Origin: Geosiphon pyriformis uo1
Lineage: Eukaryota; Fungi; Glomeromycota
Assembly: GCA_016748015.1 (NCBI GenBank)
Contig: JAAOMT010000577.1
Span: 478,666 to 542,665, forward strand
DNA length: 64,000 bases
Direction: 5' to 3'
Below, one piece after another: positions 7,563 to 62,200 of this stretch (positions are counted from its first letter, which is position 1; every line of letters starts with the position of its first letter). The position numbers were made by a program, and so were the translations under genes. The notes under the pieces were generated by a model that made no database searches, was not told the DNA's origin, and was given only the letters and a program-made list of their open reading frames with translations.

Positions 7563-8546
7563 TAACTTTTTTCTTTTATTTATTCTAATAATCATTAAAA
7601 AATCTTAATTTTAATAAACAAGTTTTTAGTTGTTATTATATACCATTTAATTTAATAAATCAAAACTATTTTTATTTAATTACAAAACTATTATTGGTTT
7701 TAATATTGCTATTATAAAGAAATTTACCAGAAACTTTGGTTTTAATATTGTTAATAAGAATGTTTTTTCTAAGAAAAAGAGAAAATATAATGTTTTGGAA
7801 AATAATATTGTTAAAAAAGAGTTGTTTGTCAAGAAAATAATTGATTGTTTTTAGGATTTTAAGACTAATAATACTATTAAATTCAATAATATTAATAAAA
7901 AAAAGAATTTTTAGTGGAAAAAACCAGTATAAATTACAATAAAAAAAAATATTTTGTTTAAAAAAATCTAAACCAGACATCTAAAGAACTTAGATTGATA
8001 ACTAAAAAGACATTAAATATATCTTTAAAAAAGATTAAGTTTATAAGTAAAGATGCTATAATAAAAAAATCTTCTTAAAAAAAGTTAAAAATAATCAAAA
8101 ATTTGTTTTCTAAAATCAATAATTTTAAAGAAATTTCTACTTTTTCAAAATTTGTTAAGATTATTTATATATCATTTACTTCTAAATTAAACTTAACATG
8201 AACAATAAAAAAGACAAAAACTATAAATATCTTAGTAAATAACAATCTTAGAAAATTTGTTAGATGTTCAGATTAAATTGTAATAGTTAAAAAATACCAA
8301 TTAGAACATTAACTAAAACTATGTATACTGTACTATCTGAATTTGAGATAATTGTATTAATTAAAATACAATTAATAAAAATATAATGGAAGATTATAAT
8401 TGAATTTAAACAATCTAATTATGTTAATTTAATTATAACAAAATAGTTTATTCTAATTAGAAAAGATTTTATAAGAATTGCTAAAGCTAATATTAACAAA
8501 AAAACATAAAATACAAAAAACTATAATAAAATACTGCTTTATATAT
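7563..8546 (+). mobile_element. Decayed LINE 5' end and ORF1 relic (LINE B-like), cut by Gypsy-1 insertion
   Basis: 7660-7800 aligns with 44740-44890, and 8060-8546 aligns with 45250-45740 (SQEKL...FGGAST...EIPIGT...LLYT). Homology stops exactly at the LTR TG at 8547. Confidence 0.75.
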
Positions 8547-9640: not shown

Positions 9641-10380
9641 TTAAAATTAAGCTTTTGTAAAATTGTATATATCTGTAATAGTTGTATTTTTTATGTAGTA
9701 TTAGATTATTGCATTAAATATTGTTTTTTGTAAGTTTTTAAACTGTGTATTTGTTATTCATTCTATATTGTTGACTGTAATAGTTTCTAGAAAGCTGTCT
9801 AATAATACAGTTGAATAGTATTTAAATATTGTATATAATTGGTATGCTGCTTTATAATGTAGTATTAAGTTGTTTCTTCTTATAAATATTTCTACTTGTT
9901 TGAAAGCTTTTTTGTTAATTGTTTATTAGTTAAGGTTTTTGTATAGTGTTCTCAATTTTATTTGTTTACCAATCTTATAGAATTAGTAGACTAGTAAAAG
10001 TTTTTTTTTCTATACTCTGGAGTTTTTAGGTATTTATTTTTCTGTTACTGGTTTCAATACTGGTCTGCTAAAAGCTTTTTTAATTTATTTGAGCTTTGTC
10101 CAACATATATTTCTTTTTTTTTTGTGTGTTTTAATTATTCATAGAAATAGAAATATTCAGTTTTAGTTGAGTTTTTGTTCACTCTTTTCCTACTTTTGTC
10201 TCTGTATTGTATCTCTTTTTTATTAATTATAATTTCTATTTGGGTTGTGAATTGTTGATTTGCTTCAAATAGTTGTTTTGAGAGTTTTAAAATTTGATTT
10301 AAGAGATTTATGTTAAAAGTTTTGTTGTTTTTTTTACTGTTTTGGCTGTTATATATACTTAAATTTTTTAATTAAATAAT
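9641..10380 (-). pseudogene. Extra ORF (ORF3) between integrase and PPT of Gypsy-1, decayed
   Basis: Translation KLSKQLFEANQQFTTQIEIIIN ... YKLYTIFKYYS..LETITVNNIE.ITNTQFKNL resembles the equivalent region of Gypsy-2; its stop abuts the PPT. Confidence 0.6.
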
Positions 10381-13300: not shown

Positions 13301-15237
13301 AAAAATAGAACCAATAAGAGTTCTCTCAGGAATTTCGATCACATTTTTGGTAGAATTTTAGATAAAAATTTTGAAATGTTTATGAGTTTTAACAAGTATG
13401 TATAGATTAACAATATCAGTTAGAAAACAAATTTCTGGATCAGTTTCAAATAGTAGGACTTGGTCTTGGATTTTTTAATTCACTTTGAGAATGTATTGTT
13501 GATATAGAGAAATAGAAATAACTGTATTAGTATAAATAAGTTTTACTTTGTCACTGTTTTTCTTAATAAAATTAACTGTTATGTTCTCTCTTTTATTTGA
13601 TCCAAATTCTTTAATTTTTTTAGCAGTGAAACTTAATTTTTTGTGTATGATAACTGAAGTTAATTGGAGTATTTTTACAAGAGATTAAAAGATAGCTTGG
13701 GCAATCTTTTCTTGTGAGTTAATTTTATAAAGTTTATCAAAATTGTTCTATAATATTACAATAATGTTTTCAGTATATCCAGTGTTGATAATTTCTCTTT
13801 TTACATCAATTTTTTTCTTTGTAAAACTATGACCTAAATGCTACTTGTACCATTATACTAATAAGAATTTTTAATGCTATTTTGAGATTTAGTTTTACTA
13901 AGGAGTATGAAGCTATAACTATAAATAATTGTCCAAAGTATTTTAAATTGAAATTAGCATTAGTTTTATGCATTTTCCAGAGCATATTTTTTTATTATTA
14001 TTACTGTACTATTTTAATTTTAATTTTTTGGAAAAATTGGGATAAACAAAATACTGTTCTATTTTAATAGTCTTATTTAGCTCTTGAAATGACAGATTTT
14101 TTCTAGTAAACTTATATTTCTCTTTTGGTTTTGGTAGTTTAATGATAGAATATAGTATTCTTAGAAGTGAATTAAATATAAGATTATATTTATTATAGTA
14201 TTAAAAATAACAAGAAATCAAGCAGTGATCACACAGTTTTGTATTAAGATCTGCTAGTTTTTGTTTCTGTTTTTCTTAAGTTGGAACCAGTTTTTGGTAC
14301 TAGTCTTGAAATGTTTTAGAATCATTTGTGAATATGTCATTTATTTTTTTGATTATTACTGGAGCATTTTTTATAATGCATATTTTCTTAATAGTAGTTC
14401 TTTCTTACTTGGCCATAATTATTTTTCAAATTTTTTCTTTATCATAGAGATATAAGTTTAGTTGGTTTATTGCTCGACTATATGCTGTAGTAAACAGAAT
14501 GTCTTTCCTAACTCAGTCATTTATTAGAATAGTGTATTGACACAATTTGTCATATGTTTCTTCTTTGTCTGAAACATTATTCTATAATCTTTTATTTGGT
14601 AAAATTTTACCATATGCAAAACATGGTGTATTGTCCTATTTGTCTTGTTACTTAAGTCATTTATATTATTCTAATATACAAAATTAGCAGTAATACTTGG
14701 TAGCTGTTGGCCATACTTTGTCATCTATAATGCAGATGCCTATTAACAATAATTTTTTTTCACAATTAATGCAGATTAATTTTGGAGATTGATAGGGTTG
14801 ATTTTTTTGGTTTGGTACTAGATATATTGATGGTGATAATTGAAATTTTTCTTTAGTCTTTCTTTTACCTTTTTTTTCCAAGTAGGGAGTGGTAAAAGTT
14901 CTGTTTAAAAATCGTCCATCCAAAAAACTTGGTACATTTTTAAAGTTGGTTGAGAAATAAGTTTATCAAATTCAATTAATAGTTGTTCTGGAGTTGTTTT
15001 TTGGAAGTGTTTACATATTGTGAATACTTAAGCATATTGTTTGTTAAAAGTTATCTGGAGTTCTTGTGTGTTCTAATCTAATGTAATGTGAACTTTTATT
15101 GGCCAATCATTTTCCATAAAAGCCTAATATTGTGTGGCTTCTATAATAAGCATTTTGGTAAGAATTTGAATTCTGCTGATTTTAAATAGAAAATTGTCAA
15201 TTTTTTCTTATAAAGGTTTTTGTATTTTTATTTATGG

Positions 15238-16238
15238 TGTTATTTATAAAAAAAAGCACAAAAAAAACAGTAGAAAAAACAGATAAAAAAAATAAACCAA
15301 TAAAAAAATAGTATTAAGCATATGAATATATTATTGCTGAATTATGACATATTGTTCAACAATATAAGCAATATCAGTAAATTATGACATATTATTTAGC
15401 AATATGAGCAATATCAATAAATTATGACACATTGCTTAATAATGTAAGCAATGTCAATAGATTAGAGCACATCACTTAGCAATATAAACATTGCTTAAAA
15501 AATTATAGCATATTGCTTACAAATGTGTAAAATTTTATAAAACATTAATTATGTATATATAGTAAGAGTATTAGAAGCAAAAAAAACAGAATTCACAGCT
15601 AGAACATAGTTAGAATTTCTGGTTAAGAAACACAGTTAGAAGCAGTTTAAAATCTATATCATATATTAATAAATTATTAATTATCTCTTAAATTTATGTT
15701 ATCAGCACTTAATTAAAGAATATTAAATTATTTCTATTCTATCAACATTTTATGTTAATAGAATTTAATACTTAACTATACTAAAACAATAGTTCTTGAT
15801 CATGGCTATTGATGAGATATTAATTTATTTATTTTTTTATTTTTTATTTTATTTTATTTTTGTTTCATTAATTTACTAACTAATTAAAAAAAACTAATGC
15901 ACAGAATACTAATATCAAGATATAGTACTAATAAAAAATCTAGAAATAAGATTAGACACTCATAATTAAGGATAACTTACTAGAAAATACTTGTCACTAA
16001 GCTAAGAAAGAAATTAATAGAATATAGATATTCTGGAAAATGATGAATAACAAAGCACATCAACTCAAAAGTTGAAAAAAACACTAGAAACATCACCAAA
16101 AAATATTATTATTAAATCTTTGTTCATTATACAAAAGACTCAACTAAAACCTTCAAATATTACTTATTATATTACTTATCAAGTGCCAAGTTAAAGGTTT
16201 GTTATTTGTATCAACACTCTAAATAATTACTTGTAATA
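15238..16238 (+). repeat. 5' LTR of Gypsy-2
   Basis: TGTTA...TGTAATA (decayed CA); direct repeat of 24361-25262; tatatata box ~15554. Confidence 0.9.
15341..15500 (+). repeat. 40-bp tandem repeat (~4 copies) in LTR U3 with ACATTGCT/AGCAATGT inverted cores
   Basis: attatgacat/attatgacac/attagagcac recur at 15341, 15381, 15421 and 15461. Confidence 0.8.
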
Positions 16239-16299
16239 TTTGATACTCTCTGTAAGGTATAATCTAGCAGAAAACCAGTACCAACAGCAATTATCTGAA

Positions 16300-19200
16300 A
16301 CAGTAACAAAATCAAAAGTAACAAAAACAAATCACTTGGAATTTCCAAAAGCTTTATTTCAATACTATTAACTCCACTTAAAATTAACAAGTAACCATTG
16401 GCCAGCAGAATCAACTTTCAACTTCTATGTCAATAAAAAAATTAAATTTCATTTAAGAGACCAAGAAGATTCAGAAGCAGCACTATATTTCTACAAAATT
16501 ATTTGTTCACTCCAATAATTACAAAAATCAACAGAAAAATTAAGAAACACATCAGACAGAAATTTTTTATTATCTTTGCAGACAACAATAAAAAAAATTA
16601 CAAACACCAGCAGAAACACCAAAAAACATACAACTATTTACTTGAAAGAAACCAAGAGTAGTTTCACTCATTCATCCATTATACCATCACATACCAAAAA
16701 GTATCATAAACATAACATCAGCCAATGTGTTCATATTAACAACAAAAACACTATCAGCAAGAATCACATTTCAAAGTCAACAAGAAAAACCCAACTTACT
16801 GAAAACTTATGGCAATTACTTTGAAGAATTTAAATTGTGATTAGCAACACCATAAAAATTTTAATTACTGCTACCTCAATCTGATTTCGAAGCCATTAAT
16901 TATTGAAAAATAACTGATTTAGAAGAAGAAAAAAACAAAGATCAGGAATTTAATTACCAAAACCCAATTCCAGAAAACCCAAACATTTAAACTCTAATTC
17001 AGCAAAACCCAAATAATTCAAACTTAGCTCTTATTATTCCTCAAAACTTATTTTTAGTAATTATAATTGATCTATTACTAGTTGTATCAATTGCTAAATT
17101 ACAACAATAGCTGTAACTACTACCTTAATAACAACAACAATAACAACTTTAACAACAACAACTATTACTAATGACATACACACCAATTGCCAAGTTAGAA
17201 AAGTTTATTGGCAAAGAGGACAATGTCCAAGTTTGGTTTAATGATGTTGTCAAAATAATTACTGCTAAAAATTAGGATAATGTTAGAGTCTTATAAGTCA
17301 TTCCATACTTTTTGCAAAATATTGCCAATTTGTGATATTAAAGCTTAATTAATAAACCTGTTACTTTCAATGTATTTAAAACAGAATTTTTGAAATACTT
17401 TAGTAATAATAACAGCATTAATTGTCTTACAACTGCCTTTATTATCATTAAACAAGAAGATACTGAAGCTATCACCATATATCTAGAACATTTTTATAAA
17501 AATTTATGCCAAATACAAACAATTGACATAAATTACTTTACAGTACCACAGATTTTAAACCAGTTTATTCATAGTTTACATAGTAGTATCTTTCAGTATG
17601 TACATCTATTACATTTACAAACACTCTAAAATACAGTTATACACCAGAAATTTTAAATTGGCCAAGCTAAAAGCCAATTATACCCAAGCTGTTAATCTAG
17701 TAATGAATAGATCATCTGATTTGAATTCTAAATTAAAACAATTCAGTGATTCAATCAATCAGAAACTTAAAGGATACTTAGCTAACAACCAGACAATATA
17801 TCAAACTCCATAATATTACAATAATTTGAAAGCCTTTAATTAGTTACATCTTTCATTATTATCAACTCATTAATCATGACAGCAAAAAATGCATATCTGT
17901 CACAACTGTAGTAAACAAAACTATATATAGATTAACTGTTATACCAGAATTAATAATCAATGATCAGAAAATTAATATCAAAACCCTGATCACCAATTTT
18001 AAACTCAGAATTATTAATTAAATCAAGAATCATATTAACTCTAATACACCCTAATAATGTAATAAGCCATATACTTACTGCTAATTTATCAGTTCCAAGC
18101 TCCAGTAATATATCAACTATAGTCACAGATTATATATTAGCCCCAACTATTTTAAATACTGCCACCAAATTCAGTTCAAATAACACCCAGAAATCAAATT
18201 CTGAAAATTACTTATACTCAACAAAACTGGAGATTGGCAATAATAATGTACTAACTGATTACCAATTCCTCAAACCAACCATCAGAATCATGCCAGTAAA
18301 GTTCAGAGAGTAAGTACATCCAGAAACCAAATTTTCAGAATTATTTAAGTTTCTTAGTTGTCTCAGAAAATGCTCAACTCAACAAATAAGAATCCAATCA
18401 AAAACAACTTATACTTACCAATAATATTCTACCAACTACTATCATAGAAGATGAATTGCTTGCTACAATCTTTTTTTTTGAAATTAAAGAACCAGTTTCC
18501 ACACCTTATTTCAATAAAGCCACTCTTAAATCAAAACTTATCACTGTCATATATACTAATACCAAAGTTGATGATCAGTTTATCAAACTGATTCTGCATA
18601 GTAAATCAGCTAATAGCATTATTACACAACAATTCATGAACCAATTAAGTCACCAAGTTGATTGTACTGCCAGTGCCAAGATTATTACTACCAATAAAGC
18701 AACTAAAATGCTCATTAGTAAGATTGACAACTTTCTGTTTAAAGTCAATAACATTAAAGTACTAATTAAGATATTGATAATAGAAGCTACCCAATACTAA
18801 GCTCTTGTTGGTAATAATTGGCTGTTCAAAATCAACACAGTGCTTGACTGAAACATCCAAGAACTACAATTGAGCCAAAACAGCCAAAACATTTAAGTAC
18901 TAGCCATTTGTGATTATTTCAAGACCACTACTAACAAGTAATCATTAATTGAGTTTGAGAAAAAAGAGAAAATACCTACCTGAAAAACATATCAAGTATT
19001 ATGAACCAAAGAAGACCATAATAAACTGTCATTAATCCTAAACTGAAAAGAAAAATGCAAAAAAAAAGCAAAAAAAAAACCTAAGCCAACTATTTCCACT
19101 TATATTCTCTATACTATTTCTTATACCAACTTACAGTATTATCAGCCAAAGCTAGTTTGCATTGATTGTGACAAGAAATTGTTATCAATAGACATATGCT

Positions 19201-27471: not shown

Positions 27472-28372
27472 TATTACTCATAAAATATAAAAATTATATT
27501 AACATATAAATTAGCCAATCAGAAGTAAATATAATAAATAAAAAATTCCAGAATTTCTCTTAAAAAAATTGTAGAATTTCAAAATTACAGGATTCTTGTA
27601 TAAAAAATTGTGGAATTCCAGAATTGCAGAATTCTTTTCGAGGAATTACAGAATTCCAGAAATTGCAGAATTCCAGGAATTGCAAAATTCCTGGTGTAAA
27701 GAATTAAAAAATTAAGAAATTTCAATTATGTATATATAGTGGTAGCATTAAAAACAGAAAAAACAGACTTCTAAGTTTCACTTCTTAGTTAGCATTCATA
27801 CATTTACACTATTAATAAATATACTTATTAATTATATCAATTCAATTATACATTATTAACACTTTATGTTGATAGTAACTTATACTTGATCATACTGGAA
27901 CAATAGTTCTTGATTATGGCTATTAATAGGATACTAACTTAATTGCCTTGGCTTTATTTTATGCATTTTTTTTTTATTTTTTTATTTTCTTTTGTTGTTT
28001 TTTGTTGTTTACTAATTGATTAAAGATCAAGTACTGAGTTATTAACATCAAAAATAGACTAGTAAAAGATTCAAAAATAAGAGTAGTGAACTCAGAAATT
28101 AAGAATAGCTTACCAGAAGAGTATAACTGCCAAAATAAACTGGCTATTATGCTGAAAAAAGAAATTTGATAGAATTGGAATTCTGGGAGGCTACAGATAA
28201 AACAACTATTGAATCTCTGTTCATTATACAAAAACTCAAAACCAAAACCTTCAGATAAACAAACCTTTTAAAGTAACAAAACCTTTAGAGATTATTATCA
28301 TTATAGCAGCTATTAAGTACCAAGTTATAGGTTTGTTATTTGTTTTGAGATCCCATATAATTACCTGTAACA
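27472..28372 (+). repeat. 5' LTR of Gypsy-3 with GAATTC/GAATTGC-rich minisatellite (~27545-27700)
   Basis: TATTACTCA...TGTAACA; the 3' half is similar to the Gypsy-2 LTRs; followed by the PBS. Confidence 0.8.
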
Positions 28373-28374
28373 TT

Positions 28375-28391
28375 TGGTGCTTTCTGTAAAG
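28375..28391 (+). promoter_or_regulatory. Primer-binding site (TGGTGCTTTCTGT...)
   Basis: TGG follows the LTR end CA after 2 nt; a decayed counterpart tgatactctctgtaagg sits at 16241. Confidence 0.7.
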
Positions 28392-31300
28392 TATAATCCT
28401 ACAGAAAACCAGCACCAACAACAATTAATCAAAAGTGACAGAATTAGAAAAAATAAGAACAAACCATTTAAGATTTGCCAAATTCTTATTTCAACATTAT
28501 TGTTAACACTTGAGATTAACCAGCAATCACCTATTAGTAAAATCAGTCTTTAATTTTTATGTCAACAAAAGAATTTTTTATTTTTTAGAAGCACTAGTAG
28601 ATACTGAATCAACAAGAGAAAATTTTTACAATAAATTAATTCAAAACACCAGCTTACCAGTAATTTATAATTTCACATCAATTTTTACTAAAATCAATTG
28701 AGAAATTGAAAATCACACTCAACAAAGATATCTAATCACCTATGCAAACAAGGGCAAGAGAAAACTACAAACATCAGCAATAATATTTTAGAAAATACAA
28801 CTACCTACTTGAAAGAAAACAAGAGTTGAATTACCAACCAATCCATCTTACTACTATATACTTAGAAGTGCCATCAACATCTTATTAATAGGTGCATCCA
28901 TATTAAACATGAAAACAGCATTGACCCAACTTCTATTTTAAAGTAAATAAAAGAAAGCAGAATTATTAGAAACTTACAATATTTATTTTGAAAGATTTAA
29001 TTCATGATCACCAATGCCATTAGGATTTCAATTACTACTATCTCAACCAGATTTTGGAACTGCCAGTCTTTGAAAGATCATAGAATCAAACAAAAAGATA
29101 AAAATTAGGAATTTAAGTATTAAAACTCAATTCCAGAAAACCCAGAATTTGAAACTCTGATTGTTTTAACTTAGCCAAATCAAAACAATCCAAACTTTAT
29201 AATTATTAATTAGCAGAATCTATCTTCAATAATTGTAATTGATCCACTACCAGTTGTCACATCATCTCAATAGTTACAACTATAACCACAACCACAACTT
29301 TAACCACAACTTTAACAACAACTATCAATTACACCAATAGTATTTGTTCCAATTGCAAAACTTGAAAAATTCACTAGTGAAAAAAATAATGCTCAAGCCT
29401 AAATAAATAATGTCATCAAAGCAATTATGGCTAATAATTGAAATAATAACAGAGCCTTTTAGACAATTCCATATTTTTTACAAGATACTACTAACTTGTG
29501 GTATTAAAGCTTGGCCCAAAAACCTCAAACATTTGATGTATTCAAACTGAAATTTCTAAGATATTTTAGTAATAATAACAGTATCAATTGCCTAGCCAAT
29601 GTTTTTATTACTATTAAACAAGGAAATACTGAAGCAGTTACCATATACTTAGGACGTTTTCATCAGAATCTACACCAAATCTGAGCAATTGATGCAGCCT
29701 ACTTTACAGAATCCCAAATTTTGAATCAATTTATCTGTAGTTTGCACAGTAGCCTTCTCCAATGCATATGTTCATTACATTTAGCTGATTTTCAAGCCAC
29801 TATTACCTATGTCAGAGACTTTAAATTAGCTGAACTCGAAGTTAACCATGCCCAGACTGTAAATTTAATAATAAATAGATCATCTGAATTGGATTTTAAG
29901 CTAAAACAATTTAATAATTTGATCAATCAAGAAATTGAAGGGTACTTAGCTAACAGCAATCAAGCAATTTATCAACTGTCACAATGACACAATAGTCAAA
30001 AAAACTCAGATTAGGCCTGAAATTAGTTGTATCTATTATCAGCAATCAATCAACAGTGACAAATAGAAACACATAGCTGCCACTATTGTGGTAGACAAGA
30101 TTATTTAAAAATTGACTGCCATATTTGCTTAAATAACTAATGATTGAGAAATCAATACCAAAATCCCAATTGCTGATTTCAAGTTCCAAATCAGTATCTG
30201 AATCAAAATCACTATCAAACTTATTACATATAAATGACATAGCAGCTAATTTACTAATCTCTAATTTATCAAATTCCAGCACCAATTATTTATTAACCAC
30301 AGCTGTAAATAATATATCAACCACAACAAATCCAAAACCTGCCACAAATTTTAACTTAGATGTCACCCAGAAATTAAAGACCAAAAACCATTGAACAAAA
30401 CTAGAAATCAGTAATAATTATTCATTAACCAATTTTCAGTTTTTTCAACCAAGCATTAGGATTATGTTTACGTAATTTGGAGATGAGTTATACTCAAAAC
30501 CTGAATTCCCAGAACTACTTAAGTCTTTTGATCACCCCAAAAAATGCCCAATACAATAACCTGGAACCTAATCAATAGCAGCCACTTACCAACAATATTC
30601 CACCAACAACTATTACTGAAAACAAATTCCTTACAGTAATTTTTTTCTTCAAAATAAAAGAATCAACTATTACATTATTATTTAATGAAGTTACTCTTAA
30701 CACAAAGCCTATTACAGCAATATATATGAATGCCAAAGTTAATGGTTATCTTATTAAACTAATATTAAATAGTGGTTTAGCAGACAACATAATTACATAA
30801 CAACTCATGAACCAGCTAGATTACTGAATTGATTACACTGCTAGTGTCAAAATTATCACTGCTAATAGAGCTACCAAAACTCTAATTGGTGAAATTAATG
30901 ACTTCCTATTTGAAGTTAATGGTATCACTATACCCATCAAAGTATTAGTAATAGAAGCTACTCAATACTAAGTCCTTATTGGTAATAACTGGCTGATAAA
31001 GACCAATGCTGTACTCAATTAGACCACTCAAGAATTGCAATTCAGCCAAAATGGCCAGCACACATGAGTACTAGCAACTTGCAGTCACTTTAAACCTACA
31101 AATCTGCCAGCACCACTAATTAACATCAAAAAAGAAGTAAACAAACCTATCTAAAAAGCCTACCAAGTCTTGTAGATTGACATTAACCACAATAAACTGT
31201 CACTAGTACTCTCTTGGAATGACAAGAAAAAAAGGAAAGAAGAAGATAAACCCAAAAAAACCACAGCTGCTAAAGAAATAACTAGTGGCTAGGAAAGATT

Positions 31301-35903: not shown

Positions 35904-36896
35904 TATAAATTTTAATAATTTTTAAATTATATGATTGAAATAAAATCTTAATAAATACTTATTTTATAGTATTAATTGAAACTGTTTGTAAAAATTTATT
36001 AAAATTGTTTTTAGATTATATTTTTAATATTTGTAATAATAATTTTTAGTTTTAAAAAATATATCAACTTTATTACCAATTTTTACAATTAATTTAATTA
36101 TAAAAAATATATTAAAAAAGATCATAAACTGAAATTAGTTTTACAAAGTATGTACAAAGTTATGATTTTGTTAAATAATTATATTTAAAAAACAATTTGT
36201 TAAAGATTAAAATATGTTTTAAATTTATCAAAATTTTTAAAAATATTTACATAAACTATTTAAATTGTGTTATAACTGATTTTAAGCTAACTAATAGCTA
36301 TAAAATTTATAATAATTTAAATCAGAATAAAGTTTTTTTTTTTTTGCTATGACATATTTTTTATGATTTTTTTTTGTATAAAGTAAAAAAACATAAACAA
36401 TTTTTGGCTATTATATTATATATAAATATATATCAAAAACAAATTGTATTAATATTTAAATTAAATTAACAACAGTTATACTATAACTTAATATATTTTC
36501 AACTTGATTAGTGAATTTTTTAGAATTAATAATATTTTTAGTAACAAATATATTTCTGATGCTAATTTATTTATTAGTAATTTACCAATTATAATTACAA
36601 AAAAAAGATATAATATTATTTAGAATTTTTTTGTTTATAAATAGTTTCTTTAAATTTAATATGTTTAAAATTTATTCAGATATAAAAATTTTTTCAAATA
36701 TAGTTCTAAAAAAATTATTTTTAATAAATAATTTTTTTATTTGATTTTAATTATATTTTAAGTAAAATTAAATCAAACTCTTTCTTTCGTTGATCTCCTG
36801 ACCATAACGAGAGCATAGAGTAGTCAAAGAAATATCTTTCTTTTCCCTTATTCCCTTCTGTTCTCTTTAATTATTTCTTTACATACACCTTAGTTC

Positions 36897-38839
36897 ATGA
36901 CAATGGATCCAGTAGGCTCTTCTGCTGGTGGGTCAGCATCTGGTTCAGCTGGTATGGGGACCCGTTCTGGCACTAAAAAAAAGGTGCACGTTGAGAGTGT
37001 TTACGCTCGTGGTCCATCTTACAAGAAAGCGAAGAAACCTGATGATTCTGGTGTTGTTGTGAATTCGTCAGCTGGCCCTCTGTCTGTGGACATGCTACAT
37101 GGTGGCGTTGACGACTGGAAGAAATCTTGGGGTAATGAAATGGACAGCGAGGAATCAAGTATTGGCGGGACTTCTGACGTTGAAAACATAAAGAACACGA
37201 TTGTGGAAGAAACAAGCTACGTCGATTCTGACACTTCCAGGGATGACGAACTAATGGGTAATGCTATGTCAAAGGGTTTGAGAACGAGAACGTACGTATT
37301 TGAACACCCGCCTAAGCAGCCTTCTTTCATTGATGTGGGTGGTGCTGGTGACGTTTTGGAGCTCCTTTCTTGCACGTTCAATGAATCTAATCAGTTGTTG
37401 CCAGTCGCGTCACGTGATTGGGAGATTCGGAGTTTTATTTCGGTGAAATCTTTTGCATTGGATATTGAACTTTCTGCAATAAGTTGATTTGTGTAAAAAA
37501 AATTTTTTATCAAGTTGATGGTTTTGGGGGGGCTTCAACTCCCTCAAAATTTCCTGGAATAATAAGGTCATCATTTACATCTGAAAAAAGTTTGATTAAG
37601 GCAAAGAAAATGGCAATTAGTGAAAAAATTTTGGTAAATGATGATCTAAGAAAAGTAAACAGCCGTTCGGATCGGGAGGTGATCATCAAGGAAATCCCAG
37701 TAGATCTTCCCAAATCAGTGATTGAGGCAGTGTTCTCCAAATTTGGCAAGATTATTTCAATCAAAGTGCAGCTTATTGGTCTTTGGCAAAAGGCCCTAGT
37801 GGAATATGAATCATCTGAGATAACTGATTTGGTTGCGGCTAGATGGTTTGTGCTCATGGGAAAAGATTCTGTTCATGTGGCAAAGGCAAGTGTTGATAAA
37901 TAAACGTGGGTATCTAAGGATCAGCATTGGGCATTGCTTTACACTCTTCCAGTTGGCACCACTGCCCATGATTTGTCTGCATTGGTGGAGGTCTATGGTG
38001 GGAAAACTTGTTTTATTGGCCGTAATCCATCTTCATATATTCGTGATCAGTATGCTGTGATCTGTTTTGAGAGTGAGGCATCTAAGTTGGCTGCTATTGG
38101 TTCGGTTCTGGTTTTCAAGGATGTGAGTTTGCATTGGGCTGGTCTATCTTTGGCCTGTTGTACAGTGTGTAAACAATTTGGTCATGTTTCTGATGTTTGT
38201 TCTATGGGTGGAAATTCTGGTGCTCACAGTAAGCGGGTGGTAACTTCTCAGAATTGGGTTCGTCTGGCTAATGTATATAGGAGGAAACAGGCTTCTATTA
38301 CTTATCCAGTTTCCTTTGGTGGCAAGACATGGGCCCAAGTTGCTAGTGGCACTTCCTTTTGTGTGGTTTCTTCAGGTCCTTTTTCTGTTGGTGCTAGTTT
38401 CGGTGCAGGTTCTGCCTTGGTAGAATCCTCCCCTTCTGATATCTCTGGTTTGTGCAGTCAGTTGGCAATTTTGGAATGCTCTTTGGAGCTTTTGGCAGAC
38501 CGAGTTTCTGCCATTGTGAAGAAGCTGAGTTGTGTTGAGGTGGTTTCTTCAGAGTCTTCTTTTCTAGCCTCTCATTCCGTTGCGTTTGCTTCTCTGGCCT
38601 CATGCGTGGATTTGAATATAGTACTGGACGTTCCGTCAATGGCCTCTCCTTCTCTTTGCCCTACCATTGATAATGCCAATCCTGATTTTGGTTCCAGTAG
38701 TTTGAAGGTTCTAACTGCCAAGATTGGTGGTTTGGAGTTAAAGTTGATGGCTTTGGATGCATCAGTCAGCTCAGTGTTGGCAAGACTGGATATGTTGTGT
38801 TCTGGTTTGGGTTCTTCGGTTCTCTTGTCTTCTCAATGA
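36897..38839 (+). pseudogene. LINE A ORF1 (two RRM-like folds, CCHC knuckle, C-terminal coiled coils), disrupted
   Basis: VIIKEIPVDLPKSVIEAVFSKFGKI, CTVCKQFGHVSDVC and heptad repeats; small frameshifting deletion at ~37480 and CAA>TAA at 37901. Confidence 0.85.
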
Positions 38840-43640: not shown

Positions 43641-44644
43641 TAAATAAATAAATAAAATTATATTTTAGTTAATAATTAATTATAAAGCACAATTTAGTTT
43701 TATTTAAGAAATATATACAAAAAATAAAATATAATAATATATAAAAACTTAAAATAATAAATAAATTTCTTTAAGAATTTTTTAAATAAAACTTTATATT
43801 ATTTATTACTATATAATTTTAGATTGTTTAAGCAAATTTAAATTAAAAATATGATAATATTTTTGGTTTTATTTTAAATATATTTGGTATTATAAATAAG
43901 TTGTTTAATTATAAATCTATAAATCTCCAGATTTTTAGTTAAGTTTTATTGAATTTTTTATTGTTTGTTAAATTAAAAGTTAATTCAATTAATAATTATT
44001 TAACAAATATGATTAAAATTTTGTTAAACTAATGTGTTTTTTTAATTTGCTTTATTACTTTAATATTTTTATATTTAAATCATATCTTTGTTTTTAATAT
44101 TTTGAATAAAAAATTATATTTTAATGTAGTATACTTTTTAAAAGATTTTATTTTATTTTTAGAACAATTAATAAACAAATAAAACAGAATTTTCAATTAA
44201 AAAACTTTTTACTAGTAAAAAAACTTTGCTTTTAAAAATTCAGTGTTTTAATAATTTAATGTTACTACTTAGTTTTTATAGAAAAAATTAATATACAAAC
44301 ATGTTATTTTCTATAAGTATAATGTTTTTCAAAAAGTATATTAAATTTTAACAATATATTAACAATTAGTAAAAGTTTAAAAACAGCATAATTATTTATT
44401 ATTAATATTTTTACAAATAATTTATTAAAAAAATTGGTGTATTATTATAAGTAAAACTGTTATATATTTTATAAATTTGGATTTAAATATTAGTATTCAG
44501 ATTTTTAAATTGGTATTATTAATATTAACTAAACTTTAAATTATTATTTTGGTTTTTAAATATTTTTTTTTTAATATGATTGCTATTTATTCAGATAATT
44601 AAACTATAATTAATGTTTGTATTTTAGAATTTAATTTAAGCAAA

Positions 44645-47600
44645 AAAAAAACTTTTTTCTTTTCTTTGTCCAAAATTCCCAAAAAAGAGTCAAAAGTTTT
44701 TTTTAAAAGAAGTTTACTTTTACAATTCAGTATGATAAATCTAAACCATTTATTCTTGACTACGAGGCCACTGTTGACAGTAGTATTGCTGTTATGAAAA
44801 AGACTGCTGAAGCTTCTGGTTCTAATGCTAGCTTTAAGCCTGTTCTCCTAAGAAAAAAAAGGAGAGGTGGTATTCTGGAAGAAAGTTCAAATAGTAGTAT
44901 TGTTAATTCTAAAGTTCAAATTAGTTATTCATAGGGTTCAGAAGCTGGAGATACCACTGGGTCTAATAGTATTGACATGGAGGAGAAGTGTCTGGTTGAA
45001 GAAACCAGTTTTGATTTCGGAGAAGGTGGAGCTCTTACTAGTGGAGACTCTAATTAAACACTTACAGGTTCTAAAGTCAAAATGACGAAAGCATTGGGGA
45101 AGCCTCTTGGTAAAATTAACTTTTTGGCTTGTAATGATGATAATAATATCCTCTTGGATGCTCCTCTTGATCTGCCTCCTTTCTTGAAGAATATGGTTAA
45201 TGTTTTGGTCAGGAAGTTCTTTGTGTTGGATATTGGCTTGGATAAGATGTTTGGTAAATCTTCTCAGGAAAAGCTTGTGGTGGTGAGGAAATTATTTTCT
45301 GGAATCAACAGTTTTGGGGGGGGCGTCTACCCCCTCAAAATTCTCAGAGATCATCAGAGTGATGTTCACTTCCAAATCGAGTCTAATAAAAGTTATTGAT
45401 AAGGTTGTGAGTGTGAAGATCTTAGTAAACACCAATCTTAAAAAATTATCTAGGCGGTCAGATCAGGCTGTGGTCATAAAAGAAATTCCAATTGGAACAT
45501 TAGCTGAGGCTGTGCGTGCTGCACTATTTGAGTTTGGAGTTATTAAGGCAATCAAGATGCAATTAATCAGGCTGTGGCAGAAGACAGTGATGGAATTTGA
45601 GCAATTAGATCAGGCTGATTTGGTTGCGGCTGAATAGTCTATTCTGATTGGGAAAGATGCTGTATGTGTGGCTAGGACTGATTTGGACAAAGAGGCATAG
45701 GATGCAAGAGATTGACATAGGGTGCTGCTCTACACATTGCCAATGGGGACTAATGCTTATGATATCTGGGACTTTGTTAAATCTGTGGGTGAGAAAACAT
45801 GCATTATTGATCATCATTCTGTTACGTATGCTCGGGCCAGGTGTGCTGTTGTTTGCTTCGACTCTGCTGAATTATTCATTGCTGCTGTGGGAACCATGCC
45901 AGTACTTAGAAATGCCAATCTCTGCTGGTCTTGCCTCATTTCTGCTAAATGTGCCAAATGTGAGAAGTTGGGTTATATGTCGTTGGGTTGTGTAGTTAGT
46001 GAGAAATTTTTTTCTGGTAATTTATTGCATAGAGCTTTCTTAGACACAGATAAAAGCAGACTGACAGCCATCTATGCCAAACACTTGGCTTTAGTTGCTC
46101 ATCCGGTCTCTTTTGGTGGTCTCTCTTAGGCAATGATTGCTTGCGGGTCTTCTGCTCTTCTCCTCTCTGGTCAGAATGTTTTGGTGGATAATGGCTCCTC
46201 TTCGGAGATGAAGCTGTCCCTATTAGTTGCAATGGAAATCAACAATAGGTTTGCTGCTCTTGAGCGCAGTCTTACCAACCTCACGGAACAAGTTGGTAAG
46301 CTGGCTAGGAAGTTAGATGCACTCAGGCTGATGGTTCCCCAGCCTAGCCCTGGATGTCAGCCATTGGTGACCTCTTTATCACAGGATTAAGGGGCAAATG
46401 TAGTGATGAGTGAGGGCTTGGATGTGTCTATTAGTGATGGAACTGTCACGGAAGCGGTGTTTTTCAATTTGTCTTTGGTGTCTAAGCTGGAAGACAGCAT
46501 GAAGTGTTTAATAGAAATAGTTCTGAGCCTTTCAGCCAAAGTGAATATTCTTGGTGTGAGTTCGGTGTCTCTACCCCTCACTCAATGAGTAGTTTGGTCT
46601 GAAAAGTTGCTACGTGCAATGTTAGGAACATGAACAATCTCGCTAAGCAAGAAGACATTATTAGATGGCATAAGAAAATAAATAATTTGGTCTTTATCAT
46701 TACTAAAACAAAATTAAGAAGTAAGGTTCATCCGTGGATTGCAGATAAGTTTAACAGTATCCAAGTGTTTACTTCTGGTTTAAACTCAGGTCACTTGGGT
46801 ACAGGAGTTGCTGTTATTATGGATGTTTCTTTGGCTCGTCATGTGTGCAAGGTTTCTGAGGTGCCTGGTTGGCTCCTGTCTATTAAATTACTTTTCAAAG
46901 ATAAACTTTCTGTGTCAATTCTGGGGCTTTATGCTGGTGTTTTTTCAGCAGTTCAGTTCTCTCAGGCTGGTGAAGTTAACTCTTTCATTGCGAAGACTGT
47001 CAATGAATCTTTTTTTATTGTTCTCGGTGGTGATTTCAATGAAGATAGTTCTCGTAAGTGTGCAAGTTTTAGAAAGTGTCTTGATTTGGGTCTGGCTAAT
47101 TCTTTGGTCGGAAGCCCAGCTGTAAAAATACATACTTGGGCGAACTTTAGGGGTGTTAGAAAAACGATTGACTATGTGTTGGTTTCTTCAAATTTGGTTA
47201 ATGCAATAGTACATTGCAGTGTCTTGGATGTTGGTGAGCATTTTGAAACAGACCATCAAGCTGTTTTTGTGTTTTTGGGTTTGGGTGGTTTATTAGATGT
47301 ACAATTGAATTCTTTTCGCAAACAGGCAAATAGAGATTGTTGGAATTTTAATTTTAAAAATGCTAATAACATGAAATGGAAAAAGTTCAAGGATGCTATA
47401 ACAGCTAATGCCACCATGTTTTCTGATGATTTTATTGCCTCCTGGCATTTCTCCGATTTGGATGCAATATGGGACATTGTTTGCAAGACAATGGTTTTTT
47501 TAGCTAACAAGGTGTTCAAAAAAAAATGGTTTAAGAACTATGATGGTGTCTTCACTAAGAAATCATCCAAATTTTACAAGTTAGAACTTTTGGTATCAAG

Positions 47601-50600
47601 GCTGGTTAAAACTTCTCGATTGACCTGTCATGACAAATTTGTTTCACTATTGGATGTTTGAAGTTCTCTTGATAATAGTAACATCTCTGTGGTCAGATCT
47701 CTCTTCTTTTCTGGCTCTCCTGTTGATACTGTTTGGTTAGCTCTTTTCAAGGTCAGGAAAACTTATTGCTCACTTAAAATGGTGGAATCGAAGTGCATAG
47801 AGGAATCTCATATCAAATCAGCAATCAATAAGAAAATGGAAAGTTTCGAGCTGAACAAGGGTCACACTATTCGAAGTGTCTTGGAGTGCCCTTTTTGTAA
47901 GGTTGTTTTGGATTACTTGGTTGTAGACAATGAGCTGATTTTGGAATTTGGTTCTGTGAGATCAAAGGTAGATGAAATCATAGAAGAGTGGACTAGAAAG
48001 CATAGGGTGGTTTCCAATGTCCCTGAAGTGTGGTACCATCAGTATCAACTGTTAGATTACGTTTTTGAAGAGACTTTTTTTGGTGTTATGCAACCAATTG
48101 AGTTTTTGGAATTGTTTGGCATGGTTTCTGATCTGCCTGTTGGCAAGGCTGTTGGTCTTTCGGGTATCTCAAATGAGCTGTAGATGCATAGTGATAGGTC
48201 TGTTCTGGATATGCTCTTGATGCTTCTAAATTCTTGTCTGTCTCATGAATCTGTGCCTGGTCCTTGGAAAGAAGCTTGGGTCTCAATGATCCCTAAACCA
48301 TATGAGTAAGAAAGTGTCCTTACAAATACCCAACCTATAGCCTTGATTGAAATGGCTCACAAAATTCTATCTAAGATTCTTTCTAACAGGATATTGCTAG
48401 TGTACAGTGCTCATGATGTTCTTCATGAGGATAATTTTTCAGTTTTAAAAGGTACTACTACCTAAACTCCTATTTTTGCTATCAATTCAGTTGTTGAGGA
48501 TGCTTTGGAGAAGAATTGGAAGCTCTGGCTGGTGTTACAAGACATGCAGAAGGTGTACGATTCTGTTGGATGGGAGCACCTTGAGAAGTGTTTGGTCAGG
48601 ATCAAAATGTGTGGTAGGTTTATTCGTTTTTTCTGTAATATTCATAGAAATCGGATCAATTAGGTTATAACAGATTTCAGTTTGACTGATAGTTATCATG
48701 TACATGATGGGTTGGACCAAGGAGAAGTTTTTTCTCCTCTTCTTTGGTGCATATTTTATGATCCTCTTTTGTGTGAAGTCAAGCATCAGAAGAGTGTATG
48801 CGGATATAGAATCAATTCCCATTTTGTCTCTAGGAATGATTGTGCTAAATCTTAGGCTGGGCTTTTTTCTTTTTTTGCTGCTGAAGCCTTTGTTGATGAC
48901 ACAATTTGGGTTGGCAGCAGTCGGGCTGCTACTCAACATATTCTTGATGTTGCTAGTGAATTTTTTTGGATTAATAACATTTCAATCAATAATGACAAAA
49001 CTGTGGTCATTCCTATTAATAGCAGAATCAGCAATTCATCTCTTTTCATTAGTGGTTCTCCCATTTCCATAGCCAAAAAAGGCGAGTCTCATCAGTATCT
49101 TGGTATTTTTCTCTCAACTGATGGCCTTTCTAAGCCTAGTTTGGCTAAAGCACATTTAGACATTTGTTTTTTTTGTAATTTGGTTCTAAAGAAGGCGGTT
49201 TCAGATAAGCAGTTCTTGTACCTGGTGTTAGCTGTTCTCTATCCTATTGTTAGCTATAGAACGGAGTTCAGCTTTGTCCCTATTGGTGTGTGCAACAATT
49301 GGAATGCTCTGATTCGCAAGAGTTTGAAACTTAAATCTGGTCTTCCTCTCGATTTTCCTAGTGACATGATTTATTATCCTTCTTTTTATGATTTGAAGTC
49401 ATTCTCACAGTGTTAGTCTAAAAGTAAAGTAGCCTCACTTATTAGTTTTGCAAACTCCTATAGGATTCTGGGTCAATTGTTTAGTCACAGGTCTTACAAC
49501 TTGCAAGTTCTGTGTTGGCACCCCATTCATCTATTAAGTTCACCAGCTTGTGTCCATGTTAGTGTTCCTAATAATTTCTTGTCAGATATGGTTTGCATTT
49601 TTTTTGGATGCAATTTGTCTTTAGGTGGCTCTTTGGCCAGCACTTTTCAGTTTAGTGATGGGGTGCCTATGACTGCTGTTCTGGGCGAATTATTGTTTTT
49701 CAAATTCTTGTCTTCTCTCCAGCGTTATGGCATTGCCTTTGTGGATCAGCTTCGGGATTGTCATGGTAATATCTTTAACTGGCACACCTTTAAGTGGTGG
49801 AAGAAACTGGACCCCCGTGGCCTGGTTCCTAAGTGGTTTGGGCTCTCTGTTGCGTTTCTCAGTGGTCCGTCTCTCTCTCCTTTGGCTTCAATTGGTGTCA
49901 GCCCTCTGGACATTTGTGGGTCTAGTAATTTCATATCTGTTAGTGATTGTCTTTCTCAATTTGGCTCTGGTAGTTTGTCTGTTTATACAGATGGTTTTCT
50001 GAAAAATTTGGGCATACTGGACTGTCAAGCTGGTGCTGCAGCCTTTTTTGAGAACATTGATTTGGGTTTGGGTGTCAGTGTTTGTGGTTTGGTTTCATCT
50101 ACTTTAGAAGAGTTGCAGGCCATTGCTTTGGCTTTGGAGTGTATACCAACATTTCGCTCTGTTTGCTTGTTTTCAGATAGTCAGGCTGCTTTGGATGCTT
50201 GCAAATCAGAGTTGGGTCTGTTATGTTCGGACTTTTGCAATTGGTGTTGGGTCAAGTGTCAGCACATTGGGAATATTATTCATGGCAAGAATTTGAAAGT
50301 CAGCTGGCACAAGATGAAGGGCCATTTTGGCATTTTGGAAAATGACTGTGCTAACAGTTTTGCTGAAAATGCCTCTCTCTCTAATTGGTTTCTTCCTCCA
50401 TGTGTTAGTGAACATTTTTTGATGACCAATGGTGGCATGGTGTCTGGTAATTCTAGGCATTTTGTTCGGGATATTTTTTGTGCTGTCTATCATGCACATT
50501 GGGAGGTTGGTTCTGGTTTTGGCTTTCTGGCAGGTGGTTTGTTTTCAGATGTCAATTGGCTGAGGTCTTTTCAGATGTGGCACCTTGATTTGCACATGGC

Positions 50601-51397
50601 CACGGGCTTTACCAACAAGTGCACTGCTGATTCCCATACCTACTTCATGAAGACTTTGCACTGTCAGCTTCCTGTGGCTGTTCGAAAACGGCTTTATGAT
50701 AGATGTTATCCCAGTGTTCTGTGTCTGTATTGTGGGAAGGTAGAAGTATCAGATCATGTGTTTTCTTGCTCAGTCAATAGCTCAGCCCATTGCCATATTC
50801 TAAATTCTGGCATGTCCTCTTGGAAAGAACTTTCTGGTTTTTCTTTTTCCTCTTCATGTGTATTGCAATTGTTGTTGACCTGTGCTTCAGATTTCTCAGT
50901 GTTCTCAGTGCTTTTTAAAGGTTTTGTTTTCAAGGGATAGTTCTCAGAGGCTGTTTCTGTCTTTCATAATCCCAAGGTTGCTGGTGCTAGGGTTACTGAT
51001 TTTGCACATTCTATTTGCCTAGCTTTTAGGAATGATATTTGGTTGGTTCATACTAAACATTGTGTCTTCATGGAGAAGTATGACCTGATTTTTAAGGATG
51101 GCTCAGTTTACACTTCGGCTTCCAGTTCGGTTTTGGTATTTTCAGCTGGTGTGGTCAAATTGCTTGGGATTTCTGAGACTTTTGGTGTCTGTTTTGGTTT
51201 TCGTAAACTTTGCTCATTTTTTTCTGGTTTAAACTCTTCAGTTTTTGTAGTAATAACTGCATAGTGTTGTCCTGACTGGTTCAAGTGGCTGGTTACATGT
51301 AGAAAATGCATGATACATATCTAGTTTAGATCATTTCTTTGATGTATAGTTCTAGATAGTGTGTGGACTTTGCTCGTTAAATGTTAGAAAAAAAAAA
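44645..51397 (+). mobile_element. LINE B: full-length, decayed; ORF1 ~44725-46588, ORF2 46585-51264
   Basis: Same domain set (FVDD ~48889, VYTDG, CLYCGKVEVSDHVFSC), conserved 3' UTR, A tail; TSD TAAGCAAA at 44637-44644 and 51398-51405. Confidence 0.92.
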
Positions 51398-57800: not shown

Positions 57801-58628
57801 GACACTTGAGATTGGTGTTTACCACAACATCACAATCATTTGCCAATTTTGCTGCAATCATTGCTTTTTCAGAAGTAAAAGAAACCCGAATGATTCTACC
57901 AAATTTTGAAAGGGTAGAGGCCCCCCCAAAACCATTCACATCAGAGAAAATTTTTCTGACATAAGCTAATTTTTCCTGAGATGACTTGTTAGCCACTACC
58001 TCAAGATCAATATCCAGAGCAAAAGATTTCCTAACCAAGACCTGTACTATATGTTTAAAAGAAAAAGAGAGAGGGAAAGAGAGTGATCCATCCAAAATAT
58101 CATCATCATCATCATTTTCTAAGTCAAAATTAATAGTGCCAAGAGGTTTTCTAAGAGTATGCTTAGTAACAACCCTTTTGAGATCTTTGGATATTATTTT
58201 AATATCATCACTACTAAACTCTCTCACACTTTCTTGCTGGAAGCTGGTTTCTTCTACCAAATACTCCTTTTCTATATCAATACTTTCAGACTCAGTAGTA
58301 TCTCCACTCACACTCTTAGCTGCACCACCAAAGGCACTGTTAGCAGTAATATCAACCACCTTAATAAATTCTACTAATAAACCACCCTTGTGCTTCTTTC
58401 TAGAAGAAGAGTCAACCACAGTAGAACCAGACAGCAACTTCTTCTTGACTTTTTTCATAACAAAAATGTCACTACCAACAGCAGCCTTGTATTCAAACAG
58501 AAAAGATTGTGAAATGTCTAACTAAATAGTGATAAAAAGTAAAAGCAGTAAAAAAAACTTCTCTCAACAAAAAAAGCTCTCTTTTAGGAATTTGGGGTGT
58601 AAAAAAGAAAGAAGTTTTTTTTTTTTTT
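51833..58628 (-). mobile_element. LINE C: full-length, decayed; ORF1 ~58527-56656, ORF2 56659-51973
   Basis: Minus-strand ORF fragments cover EN, RT, RNase H and CCHC; 3' UTR 51858-51972; TSD AGTTTTTT at 51825-51832 and 58629-58636. Confidence 0.9.
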
Positions 58629-59253: not shown

Positions 59254-62200
59254 AAAAACTTCTTTTTTCTCTATGTTCCAAATTCCTAAAATAGCACAAT
59301 TTTTGAAGAAGTTTTCTTGTTTTTTGTATCTATTCTTATTTTCTATTTTTTTTGGTCTTCACAATTTCTCAACTCACTAATCCTTTCATTGTTCTTTTGG
59401 CGTCTGATATTGTTAATGCTATGTCTGCAAAAAAATTGGCCAGAGGTGCCACTAACAGCTCTGTGAGTGGGAATCTGAGACAAAAACCAAAGGTTTCACT
59501 TGAAAAAGTTAAACACTTGAGTAATGAAGCTAATTTGTCTTTCAAATTATCTGCAAGCAATTCCGGTTGGTATGAGAATATAAATATCTTTTCCAATGAG
59601 AAGTTGGAGCATGAAATAGGCAAAAACATGGGCTATGGTGCTGGCAGCAAGAGTGATAGACCATTGGACTCTAGTACCAACACCCCAAAAGCAAAATGTT
59701 TCAATACTGATATGGTTAAGACTCAATTTCTGAGTCTCTGCAATTTTGGCTCTACCATTAATAATGTCAACATGGACTTATCTTCTCCTGTTTCTTTGGA
59801 ATCCTCTCTTTGTCCAGTTTTTTCTGTCAAGGAAAGACTCTGTTTTAAACTGGCCAAATTTTTTGTGCTTAATATTGGTCTGTCAGCTATTCCTGGAACT
59901 ACTCTGCATAACAAACTCAAGAGTGTTAGGAAGTTATTCTACAAAATTAACAGTTTTAGGGGTATGTTAATCCCATCAAAGTTTCTAGGCATTGTTAGGG
60001 TGTCTTTCACATCTGAATTCAGTCTCATTTTGGCTAAACAATTGGCTGTGTCTGAGAATTTTGTTGTTAATGCTGATCTGAAGAAGATTGGCATATGATC
60101 AAATCAGGAAATTGTTATCAAAGAGATTCTGGTCAATTTGTCCAAATCGGCAGTTGAATCAGCTTTGGTCAAGTATGGAAAAATTTTTTCAATCAAAATA
60201 CAGTTGATTGGTCTCTGGTAGAAACCACTGGTAGAGTTTAAAAGTTCTCAGATTACTGACTTGGTTGTGTTCAAATGATCAATCTTGCTGGGTAAAGACT
60301 CGGCGAGTGTTGCCAAAGCCAATGCCAACAAACAAACATGAGATTTAAAGGACAGCTATTGCACTCTTCTATACACTTTGCTGATGGGCATGACTGCCCA
60401 CAATCTCTCAAATTTGGTCCAGTCATATGGTAAGAAGACTTGCTACATTTTTAAGAACTCAGTGTCTTATGCACAAGCCCACTGTGCAGTCATTTGTTTT
60501 GATTCTGAAGATGTTAAAGAGACTGCTATTTGCTCTACACCAGTGTTTAAGGGTGTCAATCTCATATGGGCTGGTTTGTTTTCTTTTAAGTGTACAACAT
60601 GTGATAATTTTGGTTATGTTTCCTCTGGATGCGACAGTAGTATAAAAAACATTGGGCTGGGTTTCAAAAAAAAAAGATTTCTTTGTTTCAATTTGGATAA
60701 AAAGTGTCTTGTGCTCATCTATGCCAAAAAACAAGCTTCTGTGTCTTATTCAGTCTTTTTTGGCAGTATGACTTAGGCTTTTGTGATAAATGGCTCTCTT
60801 AAAAATTTGTATTCTACACTATTTGTTGAGAACAATTTGAGCATAGGTTGAGTCAACAGTTCAATGCCTACAGTTACAATTCTGGCTTTGCATATTAGTG
60901 TCCTAGAATGTTCACTTGAGAATATGTCTGACCAGATGGCTAACATTTCATGTAAACTGGACAAATTGCTGGCTGTTTTGTCAGTGAGTTTTACTGTTCC
61001 CCCTACTCCTAAACATAACCCAGTGCTGGACATGACTGTTAACACTCTATTGTTTGTTTCCCCTGTGCCCAGTGTAGTCACTGCCATATCTCAGGACATT
61101 TCTCCAAGTGGTTTTTGTGTTTTAACTGTAAAAGTAGATGGTCTAAAAGCTAATCTGGCGGTTCTAGAGAATTCAATTAAGGTAATATTGAATAAATTGA
61201 ACTCTTTTGGTTCTGGCAGTAGTATAGTAACTCCTTCTCTTCCCCAATGAGTAGTTTAGCTTAGAAAATTGCTACTTGTAATGTTAGTGGTATGAATGTT
61301 TCTGCTAAGCAGGATGACATTATTAAATAGCACATGGTTTCGAATAATGACATTTCAATAGTTACTAAAACTAAGCTTTGTTTCAGTATTAAGTCTTAGA
61401 TTGTGAATAAGTTTTCTGGTGTAAAGGTATTTACTTTAGGTCTGGATGCTGGGTTTTTAGGTGTGGGCATCACTTTAATTATGAATGAAAATTTAGCCAA
61501 ACATGTTTCTAAGATTTCTGAGATTCTGAGTAGACTTTTGATGGTCTGTTTGCTATTCAAAAACAAACAATCTGTTTCTGTGTTGGGTTTGTATGCAGAG
61601 GCTTTTCTAGATGAGTGTGTAATTCAGGCTGGACTTATCAATTCTTTTATAGCCAAAGCTTGTAATAAGAGTACCTTTGTTATTTTAGGTGGTAATTTCA
61701 ATAAGAATGGGAACAAACATAGCTTTAGCTTTAGTAAGTGTATAGATCTGAGTCTAGTCAATACATTGGTTAATAGTTTTTACATTAAAACTTCTACTTG
61801 GAGGAATTCCAGAGGTGTTGAAAAGACTATTGATTACATTTTTGTTTCACAAAGTTTGAGTAATGCTTTAGTAAATGGGCATGTTGTGGATGTGGATGAG
61901 TTCTTTTGCACTGATTATAGTTCTGTTCAAATTACAATTGGACTTGGTGGAATTTTAGATCCTGTCTTAAGAGCTATTCGTGTTCAAGCCAATAAAGACA
62001 AGTGGAAATTTAATGTCAAGAATGCTGATAGAGTTAAATGGGAACAGTATAAGACTGCATCTTATGATAATTTTACCATGTTTTTCGATGAGTTTACAGG
62101 TTCTTATTGTTTGTCTAATCTGGACAGCATGTGGAGTGTTGTTCATAAAGCCATTTGTTTCTCAGTAAATGAAGTTTTCTTGAAAACCTGGTCTAAAGAT

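Follow-up and report, generated by a model that had tools for sequence, protein, structure and literature searches.

The DNA studied is a 64-kb window of contig JAAOMT010000577.1 of Geosiphon pyriformis, and all positions given here are those of the window. It contains four long LINE copies, labeled A, B, C and D, and the 5' part of a fifth, relic copy. On the forward strand, LINE A starts at about position 36778, LINE B at about 44650, LINE D at about 59257 (it extends beyond the end of the window) and the relic at about 7564, while LINE C lies on the reverse strand, from about 58616. The four long copies belong to different subfamilies and are packed within 28 kb (36778–64000), with B and C tail to tail, and C and D head to head with about 640 nt between them. 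All copies observed are decayed. A-runs end B and C at the 3' side, and the flanks are heavily decayed. Elsewhere in the window, an additional decayed fragment of a LINE ORF2 is found at 184–2604 (forward strand), and long decayed repeats without match to LINE proteins occupy 10297–33938, with repeat pairs such as 10297–13888 versus 23737–20131, and 15740–19084 versus 27854–31255. An unbroken frame of 555 codons (4534–6201, reverse strand) lies in a 35% GC island within AT-rich DNA, the spacers in the window having 14–16% GC; its matches to fungal protein kinases are weak, just under the cut-off.

The elements can be classed as APE-type LINEs, since ORF2 of element A matches PF03372 and PF00078 above the cut-offs, and B, C and D align to A. 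The domain matches of ORF2 are endonuclease, RT and RNase H, and a PDB sequence search with a profile of its N-terminus gave no hit. ORF1 is of the RRM/CCHC kind: RRM_1 scored above cut-off in two of the five ORF1 relatives scanned, with a weak match to zf-CCHC_3. In LINE B, ORF1 spans 44725–46588 of the forward strand and is decayed, with stops and a frameshift; it encodes a predicted disordered N-terminus, RRM-like domains, a CCHC-type knuckle and a coiled coil. The decayed ORF2 of LINE B (46585–51397, forward strand, end approximate), with its endonuclease, RT and RNase H, is followed by a short 3' end and an A-tail. The ORF1 stop and the ORF2 start overlap as ATGA in B (46585), and likewise in A (38836) and D (61247), all on the forward strand, while the same junction in C (56659, reverse strand) reads ATAA, decayed from ATGA. 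This overlap is a plausible candidate for termination-reinitiation coupling between ORF1 and ORF2.

The original prediction, made from this DNA, held that ORF1 probably starts at a conserved ATT codon upstream of the first ATG, and every coordinate, codon and peptide it named is present in the window. In LINE B the candidate AUU start is the ATT of ACA-ATT (44722–44727, forward strand), with a purine at -3. It would open an N-terminal extension of 23 codons (44725–44793), holding the motif KPFILDYEA at 44743–44769, and is followed by the first in-frame ATG of ORF1 (44794–44796), likely the start of a short isoform. LINE C (58456–58530, reverse strand) has ACT-ATT at 58530–58525, a 23-codon extension and an ATG at 58458, and the relic (7642–7716, forward strand) has ACC-ATT at 7642–7647, 23 codons and a decayed ATA at 7714. 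LINE D (59361–59423, forward strand) reads ACA-ATT-TCT (59361–59366), without AG after the ATT, and has a 19-codon extension, the motif NPFIV and an ATG at 59421. The in-frame distance from ATT to ATG is therefore 69 nt in B, C and the relic (to the ATA) and 57 nt in D, the equal spacing of the first three being due to common descent without indels. The Gln given in brackets in the peptide of C is backed by a Gln at that place in the C-type gene model P0113.

The context of the codon was described as Kozak-like, which holds for the purine at -3 but not for +4, where the window copies have C or T, not G. For LINE B, the sequence could also be compared with contigs of run X1, 332 of which align on 44680–44805 at 80% likeness; run X2 gave one matching contig and run X3 none. 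The in-frame stop TAA at 44704 is present in B as claimed, but it is not general, with T>G in about half of the X1 contig depth. Similarly, the statement that no ATG precedes 44794 is correct in frame but not overall, as an out-of-frame ATG with A at -3 lies at 44732. It opens a 21-codon uORF (44732–44797, forward strand) whose TGA overlaps the ORF1 ATG as ATGA, and which is absent from C. This AUG is removed by C at 44733 in about 14% of the contig depth, or by A at 44734 in 22%. It is lineage-specific, and could divert ribosomes from the downstream AUG, lowering the short form in B. The ATGA overlap that ends the uORF is of the same type as that at the ORF1/ORF2 junction.

LINE A was said to carry an ATG at a comparable place, in ACAATG (36900–36905). 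This is doubtful, as a candidate in-frame ATT-TCT lies at 36873, 30 nt further upstream and 10 codons before the ATG at 36903 (36870–36905, forward strand); a further in-frame ATG is found at 36897, and a TAG at 36891. With the D/E profile this ATT is the best site in the leader of A, yet 2505 of 5000 shuffles score as well, and the claim that A shares the extension, having failed significance, is kept as an unproven lead only. In-frame ATT codons are frequent by chance in AT-rich leaders (9–36% of shuffles have one even when a context rule is added, for a null that is not matched to the context of C and serves only to show that such codons are common). The codon alone hence proves nothing, and the case rests on its position and on the other copies. 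ACG as the true start, one codon earlier, was rejected, the codons at that place being ACA, ACT, ACC and ACA, with no A>G row at 44724.

The 5' leader of LINE B (44650–44724, forward strand) is 75 nt long, from an AACTYYT motif at its 5' end to the ATT, and contains no ATG. A similar AACTYYT motif opens all five copies, 75–107 nt upstream of the ATT. The summed depth of the X1 contigs rises from 108–141 at 44600–44633 to 4,667 at 44634–44650 and 26,715 at 44651–44667, a step which places the 5' edge of the repeat there, with no conserved sequence further upstream. A conserved AUG was sought in the leaders of the window copies, and none was found: there is no ATG in those of A, B, C and the relic, and the one in D is out of frame, 91 nt upstream of the ATT. 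The phase of two leader landmarks relative to the ATT also varies among the window copies. A leader AUG as the general start, whether as in the gene models P0010, P0015 and P0069 or as the ATG of D, was rejected on these two grounds. Directly before the ATT, B has a pyrimidine-rich run. The RNA folding of leaders and extensions is unremarkable (z between -1.1 and +1.2), and Rfam returned no ribozyme family match at the 5' ends of C and D, with two sub-threshold hits, the copies being heavily mutated in both analyses.

All seven indel rows of these 332 X1 contigs fall at 44697–44717, six with lengths that are no multiple of three; 44718–44805 is free of indels. For the substitutions in codons 1–23, 11 C>T/G>A rows were excluded, as was an A>G row at 44777 that reverts a mutation of B itself. 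The eight remaining rows fall five times on the third codon position, three times on the first and never on the second (p 0.088 and 0.039). Transversions between B and C are distributed 3/2/6 over codon positions 1/2/3 in 22 codons, and 10/4/26 in a 114-codon core block. Together, the contig rows and the B/C transversions number 19, of which 11 affect the third position (p 0.024). Random re-placement of the B/C substitutions yielded p 0.037 and 0.082 for the frame of ORF1 and 0.88 and 0.78 for the two alternative frames; on core blocks of equal size it stayed below 0.01 in four of five. Window-only permutations gave p 0.14 for B and the relic and p 0.032 for C and the relic. The coding signal suggested by the window DNA alone is thus modest. 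Few variants of any type, synonymous ones included, are found among the X1 contigs at 44718–44747, and there are no variant rows at 44725–44732, which includes the ATT; the latter is weak evidence, because nearby mutator targets also lack rows, pointing to mapping bias.

Related proteins extend the comparison beyond the window. The four proteins found with the N-terminal stretch of B, P0001 among them, are hypothetical proteins of G. pyriformis. In all, 260 proteins were examined; all the named ones are Geosiphon models, as are ten of ten checked among 150 others. Many public Geosiphon "hypothetical proteins" (P0001 and many of P0002–P0260) are gene models on dead LINE copies, and P0001 is a model on this very window, fusing pieces of elements A and B. 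Such models are in frame by construction, and frameshifts are invisible in them. Twelve models of B, C and E type read through the leader, and in 11 of these an Ile precedes the motif Phe by a distance that is constant within a lineage: 8 residues for 7/7 B/C models, 7 for three E1 models (the distance in window copy D too) and 6 for one E2 model. The exception, P0184 (E2), has no such Ile. The reading ATT comes from DNA, namely from the window copies and B-like contigs; in the gene models the codon could be ATC or ATA instead. The residue preceding the Ile is T, A, N, I or V in 16/16 rows, which implies a purine at -3. From Ile to Met, the length is 23 or 22 codons in the B/C types and 19 in D and E1.

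A P-F-hydrophobic-hydrophobic-D motif is common to the ORF1 clades. A profile built from four E extensions finds the KPFILDYEA of B in the B 5' region, with none of 5000 shuffles as good, while the E profile is not significant on the C motif (2123/5000 shuffles as good). A tree of the first RRM, from 40 rows and omitting P0003 and P0184, which lack this region, resolves three supported clades (B/C, E and A+D), with 42–53% identity between clades and 43–53% between B and E in the RRM core. The extension is present in a member of each clade, D representing A+D. Related loci were sought in viral contigs, metagenome contigs and prokaryote genomes, and none was found. The view that the upstream codons are conserved as protein is upheld by the third-position bias, the whole-codon lengths and the cross-clade motif, with moderate p values. 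Taken together, these comparisons support protein-type evolution of the stretch upstream of the ATG, its signal starting at the Ile codon.

The fate of the downstream AUG differs between lineages. Among 32 B/C models, the Met column holds M in 17, I in 12 and L in 3. The I would be expected to represent ATA, the G>A decay product, and the L marks lineage B5, where the next Met lies five codons on. In E2 the usual Met is absent from 12/12 models, being replaced by Thr/Ala/Ile-type residues. Both B5 and E2 retain the extension, and in nine of the 12 E2 models the start is a Met some eight codons upstream, within it. Rough pattern counts for E1 give 32 models whose start is a Met of the motif and 28 with the usual Met as start; some of the former may be due to GTG>ATG decay. 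In every lineage an AUG follows soon after the Ile, ahead of a Lys/Arg cluster, and position -3 of the downstream AUG is a purine in all four long copies, A to D. An AUG in good context kept in every lineage favors two isoforms over throttling. Of the two outcomes that had been put forward, two ORF1 isoforms therefore fit better, and throttling of ORF1 is unlikely.

As had been claimed, loss of an ancestral ATG through the local mutator does not account for the ATT. Where two copies among A, B and C concur, the third has C>T at 25% of sites and G>A at 19%, compared with at most 3.5% for any transversion class, to which ATG>ATT belongs. In addition, a Met stands at the Ile column in only one of the 260 models (P0003), which disfavors the Ile as a decayed ATG. 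The dinucleotide preference of the mutator is small (CpG 35%, other contexts 17–28%), and a RIP-like or methylation-driven process is a candidate cause of this strong C>T/G>A decay in a fungus of the Glomeromycotina.

In an AlphaFold model of P0010 (68 rows), residues 1–170, which include the extension, have pLDDT below 50. A fold search with this model gave middling RRM/ACT and coiled-coil matches, with RRM-like folds at Z 7–8, and no ESM Atlas hit reached 0.9. Packing of the motif on the RRM, an idea to which the model lends no support, was dropped. The long form would add 18–28 residues, or about 11 in E2. With the extension in a predicted disordered region, its P-F-hydrophobic-hydrophobic-D core is most likely a short linear docking motif; it may resemble SUMO-interacting motifs.

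The interpretation I favor, with a probability of about 0.7, is that the conserved in-frame coding stretch starts at its Ile codon, and that AUU and AUG starts give two ORF1 isoforms. That an extended ORF1 protein is initiated at the AUU at all, be it as the sole form or as one of two, is still more probable. Transcription would proceed from the element's own 5' end, followed by cap-dependent leaky scanning through the leader. A minority of the scanning ribosomes would begin at the AUU, giving the longer ORF1 protein; the majority would continue as far as the downstream AUG, giving the shorter one. Both isoforms would then be made, and the docking motif would be borne by a sub-stoichiometric share of the ORF1p subunits.

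Several other explanations must be weighed against the two-isoform model. The AUU might be the main or only start, throttling ORF1 and the coupled ORF2, with the downstream Met an ordinary internal residue. The loss of the usual Met in lineages B5 and E2 would agree with this, as would the out-of-frame AUG of B at 44732, which ribosomes would meet after the AUU but ahead of the in-frame AUG, so that fewer would arrive at the latter; through the ATGA overlap in A, B and D, ORF2 would track ORF1 output. However, the Met column holds M or its decay product I in 29/32 B/C models, another Met occurs within about 5–9 codons in both lineages that lost the usual one, the AUG has its -3 purine in all four long window copies, and the out-of-frame AUG is not found in C. 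I consider this explanation improbable in general, although a sole AUU start is possible, mainly for B.

Two further alternatives do without AUU initiation. If the CAG after the ATT (44728–44730 in B, Gln2, forward strand), used as a splice acceptor in automatic gene models, were a genuine 3' splice site, an upstream AUG exon would be joined to codon 3, and ACAATT would simply be part of the acceptor. The pyrimidine-rich run before the ATT of B and the CAG after it have the appearance of such a site, and 10/17 models with the motif from codon 3 change to other sequence exactly at the CAG. Yet D has ATT-TCT and so lacks the AG, the Ile of the E models is followed by Ser or Asn, no ATG is available in the leaders of A, B, C or the relic, and the repeat begins only 75–107 nt upstream. 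Moreover, the upstream exons of the ten models are mostly unrelated to one another and look like artefacts of a predictor that must supply a coding-like stretch with an ATG. Splicing is thus the least likely of the explanations considered. Hardly more probable, and on a par with the AUU as main or only start, is a non-coding cis-element of the 5' UTR, such as part of an internal promoter or an RNA signal, with ORF1 starting at the ATG and the protein-like pattern as a by-product. Internal promoters are described in the 5' UTRs of LINEs (PMC3894237), 44718–44747 is poor in variants, including synonymous ones, and the window-only tests are borderline. This is opposed by the third-position bias, by length changes in whole codons and conservative replacements of amino acids between lineages, by indels that end sharply at the ATT, and by a motif common to the B and E clades.

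Beyond the two isoforms themselves, a broader proposal can be made, tentatively and at somewhat less than even odds: the AUU start may have been kept since before the three main ORF1 clades split, giving a LINE RNP of two ORF1p forms with an N-terminal docking motif on one, in a ratio set by start-codon stringency that could respond to host stress. Near-cognate initiation is reported to shift with stress and with eIF1/eIF5 levels (PMC5487733). A conserved AUU-initiated isoform, if true, would be an additional control point.

This kind of translation is already known. In fungi, conserved AUU, CUG and ACG starts are described for cpc-1 of Neurospora and other Pezizomycotina (PMC5487733), and the ArgRS of Cryptococcus is reported to start at cccaccAUU (PMC7049704). 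As proposed for Geosiphon, a conserved in-frame AUU that precedes the main AUG and has a favourable -3 position gives an extended isoform there. As described, however, both are host genes whose extensions are long or are mitochondrial targeting peptides, whereas those of Geosiphon are 10–28 residues on a transposon protein. In rice tungro bacilliform virus (RTBV), the AUU start of ORF I is reported to be used by about 10% of ribosomes, with leaky scanning (PMC5902531). This too is a reverse-transcribing element, and the ribosomes that do not use its AUU start scan to downstream AUGs. According to the same account, ribosomes get to the RTBV codon by shunting and the later AUGs belong to other ORFs, while the Geosiphon leader is 75–107 nt long without notable structure, and its AUU and AUG share one frame. 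PEG10, a domesticated Ty3/gypsy gag-pol gene, has a CUG start 34 codons before its AUG, and both are reported to be used (PMC2800197). It resembles the proposed case in that an RNA-packaging protein of retroelement origin has two starts in one frame, its AUG and a near-cognate codon upstream. It differs as a mammalian host gene from an LTR element with a CUG, compared with a multi-lineage non-LTR ORF1 with an AUU and a conserved extension motif.

Among non-LTR retrotransposons, the 5' ribozyme of R2 has been linked to cap-independent initiation (PMC12203849), and ORF1 and ORF2 of SART1 are coupled through UAAUG (PMC3894237). These are also non-LTR retrotransposons, with non-standard initiation as proposed for Geosiphon, and the Geosiphon LINEs share a stop-start overlap, in the form of ATGA. 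As reported, however, they concern a single-ORF element or ORF2, not ORF1, which a review of non-LTR translation describes as translated normally from AUG (PMC3894237). A survey of Glomeromycotina transposons covers G. pyriformis, and this feature is not mentioned in its accessible text (PMC11952901). A literature search, mainly of openly available papers, found no description of a non-AUG start for a LINE ORF1. LINE ORF1 is generally assumed to start at AUG, the known oddities being those of ORF2 or of R2.

The short extension motif, now that it is named, is directly testable. For annotation, LINE consensus sequences that begin ORF1 at the first ATG can truncate a selected N-terminus. The proposed start would also explain the odd micro-exons that are spliced onto this site in many Geosiphon "hypothetical proteins".
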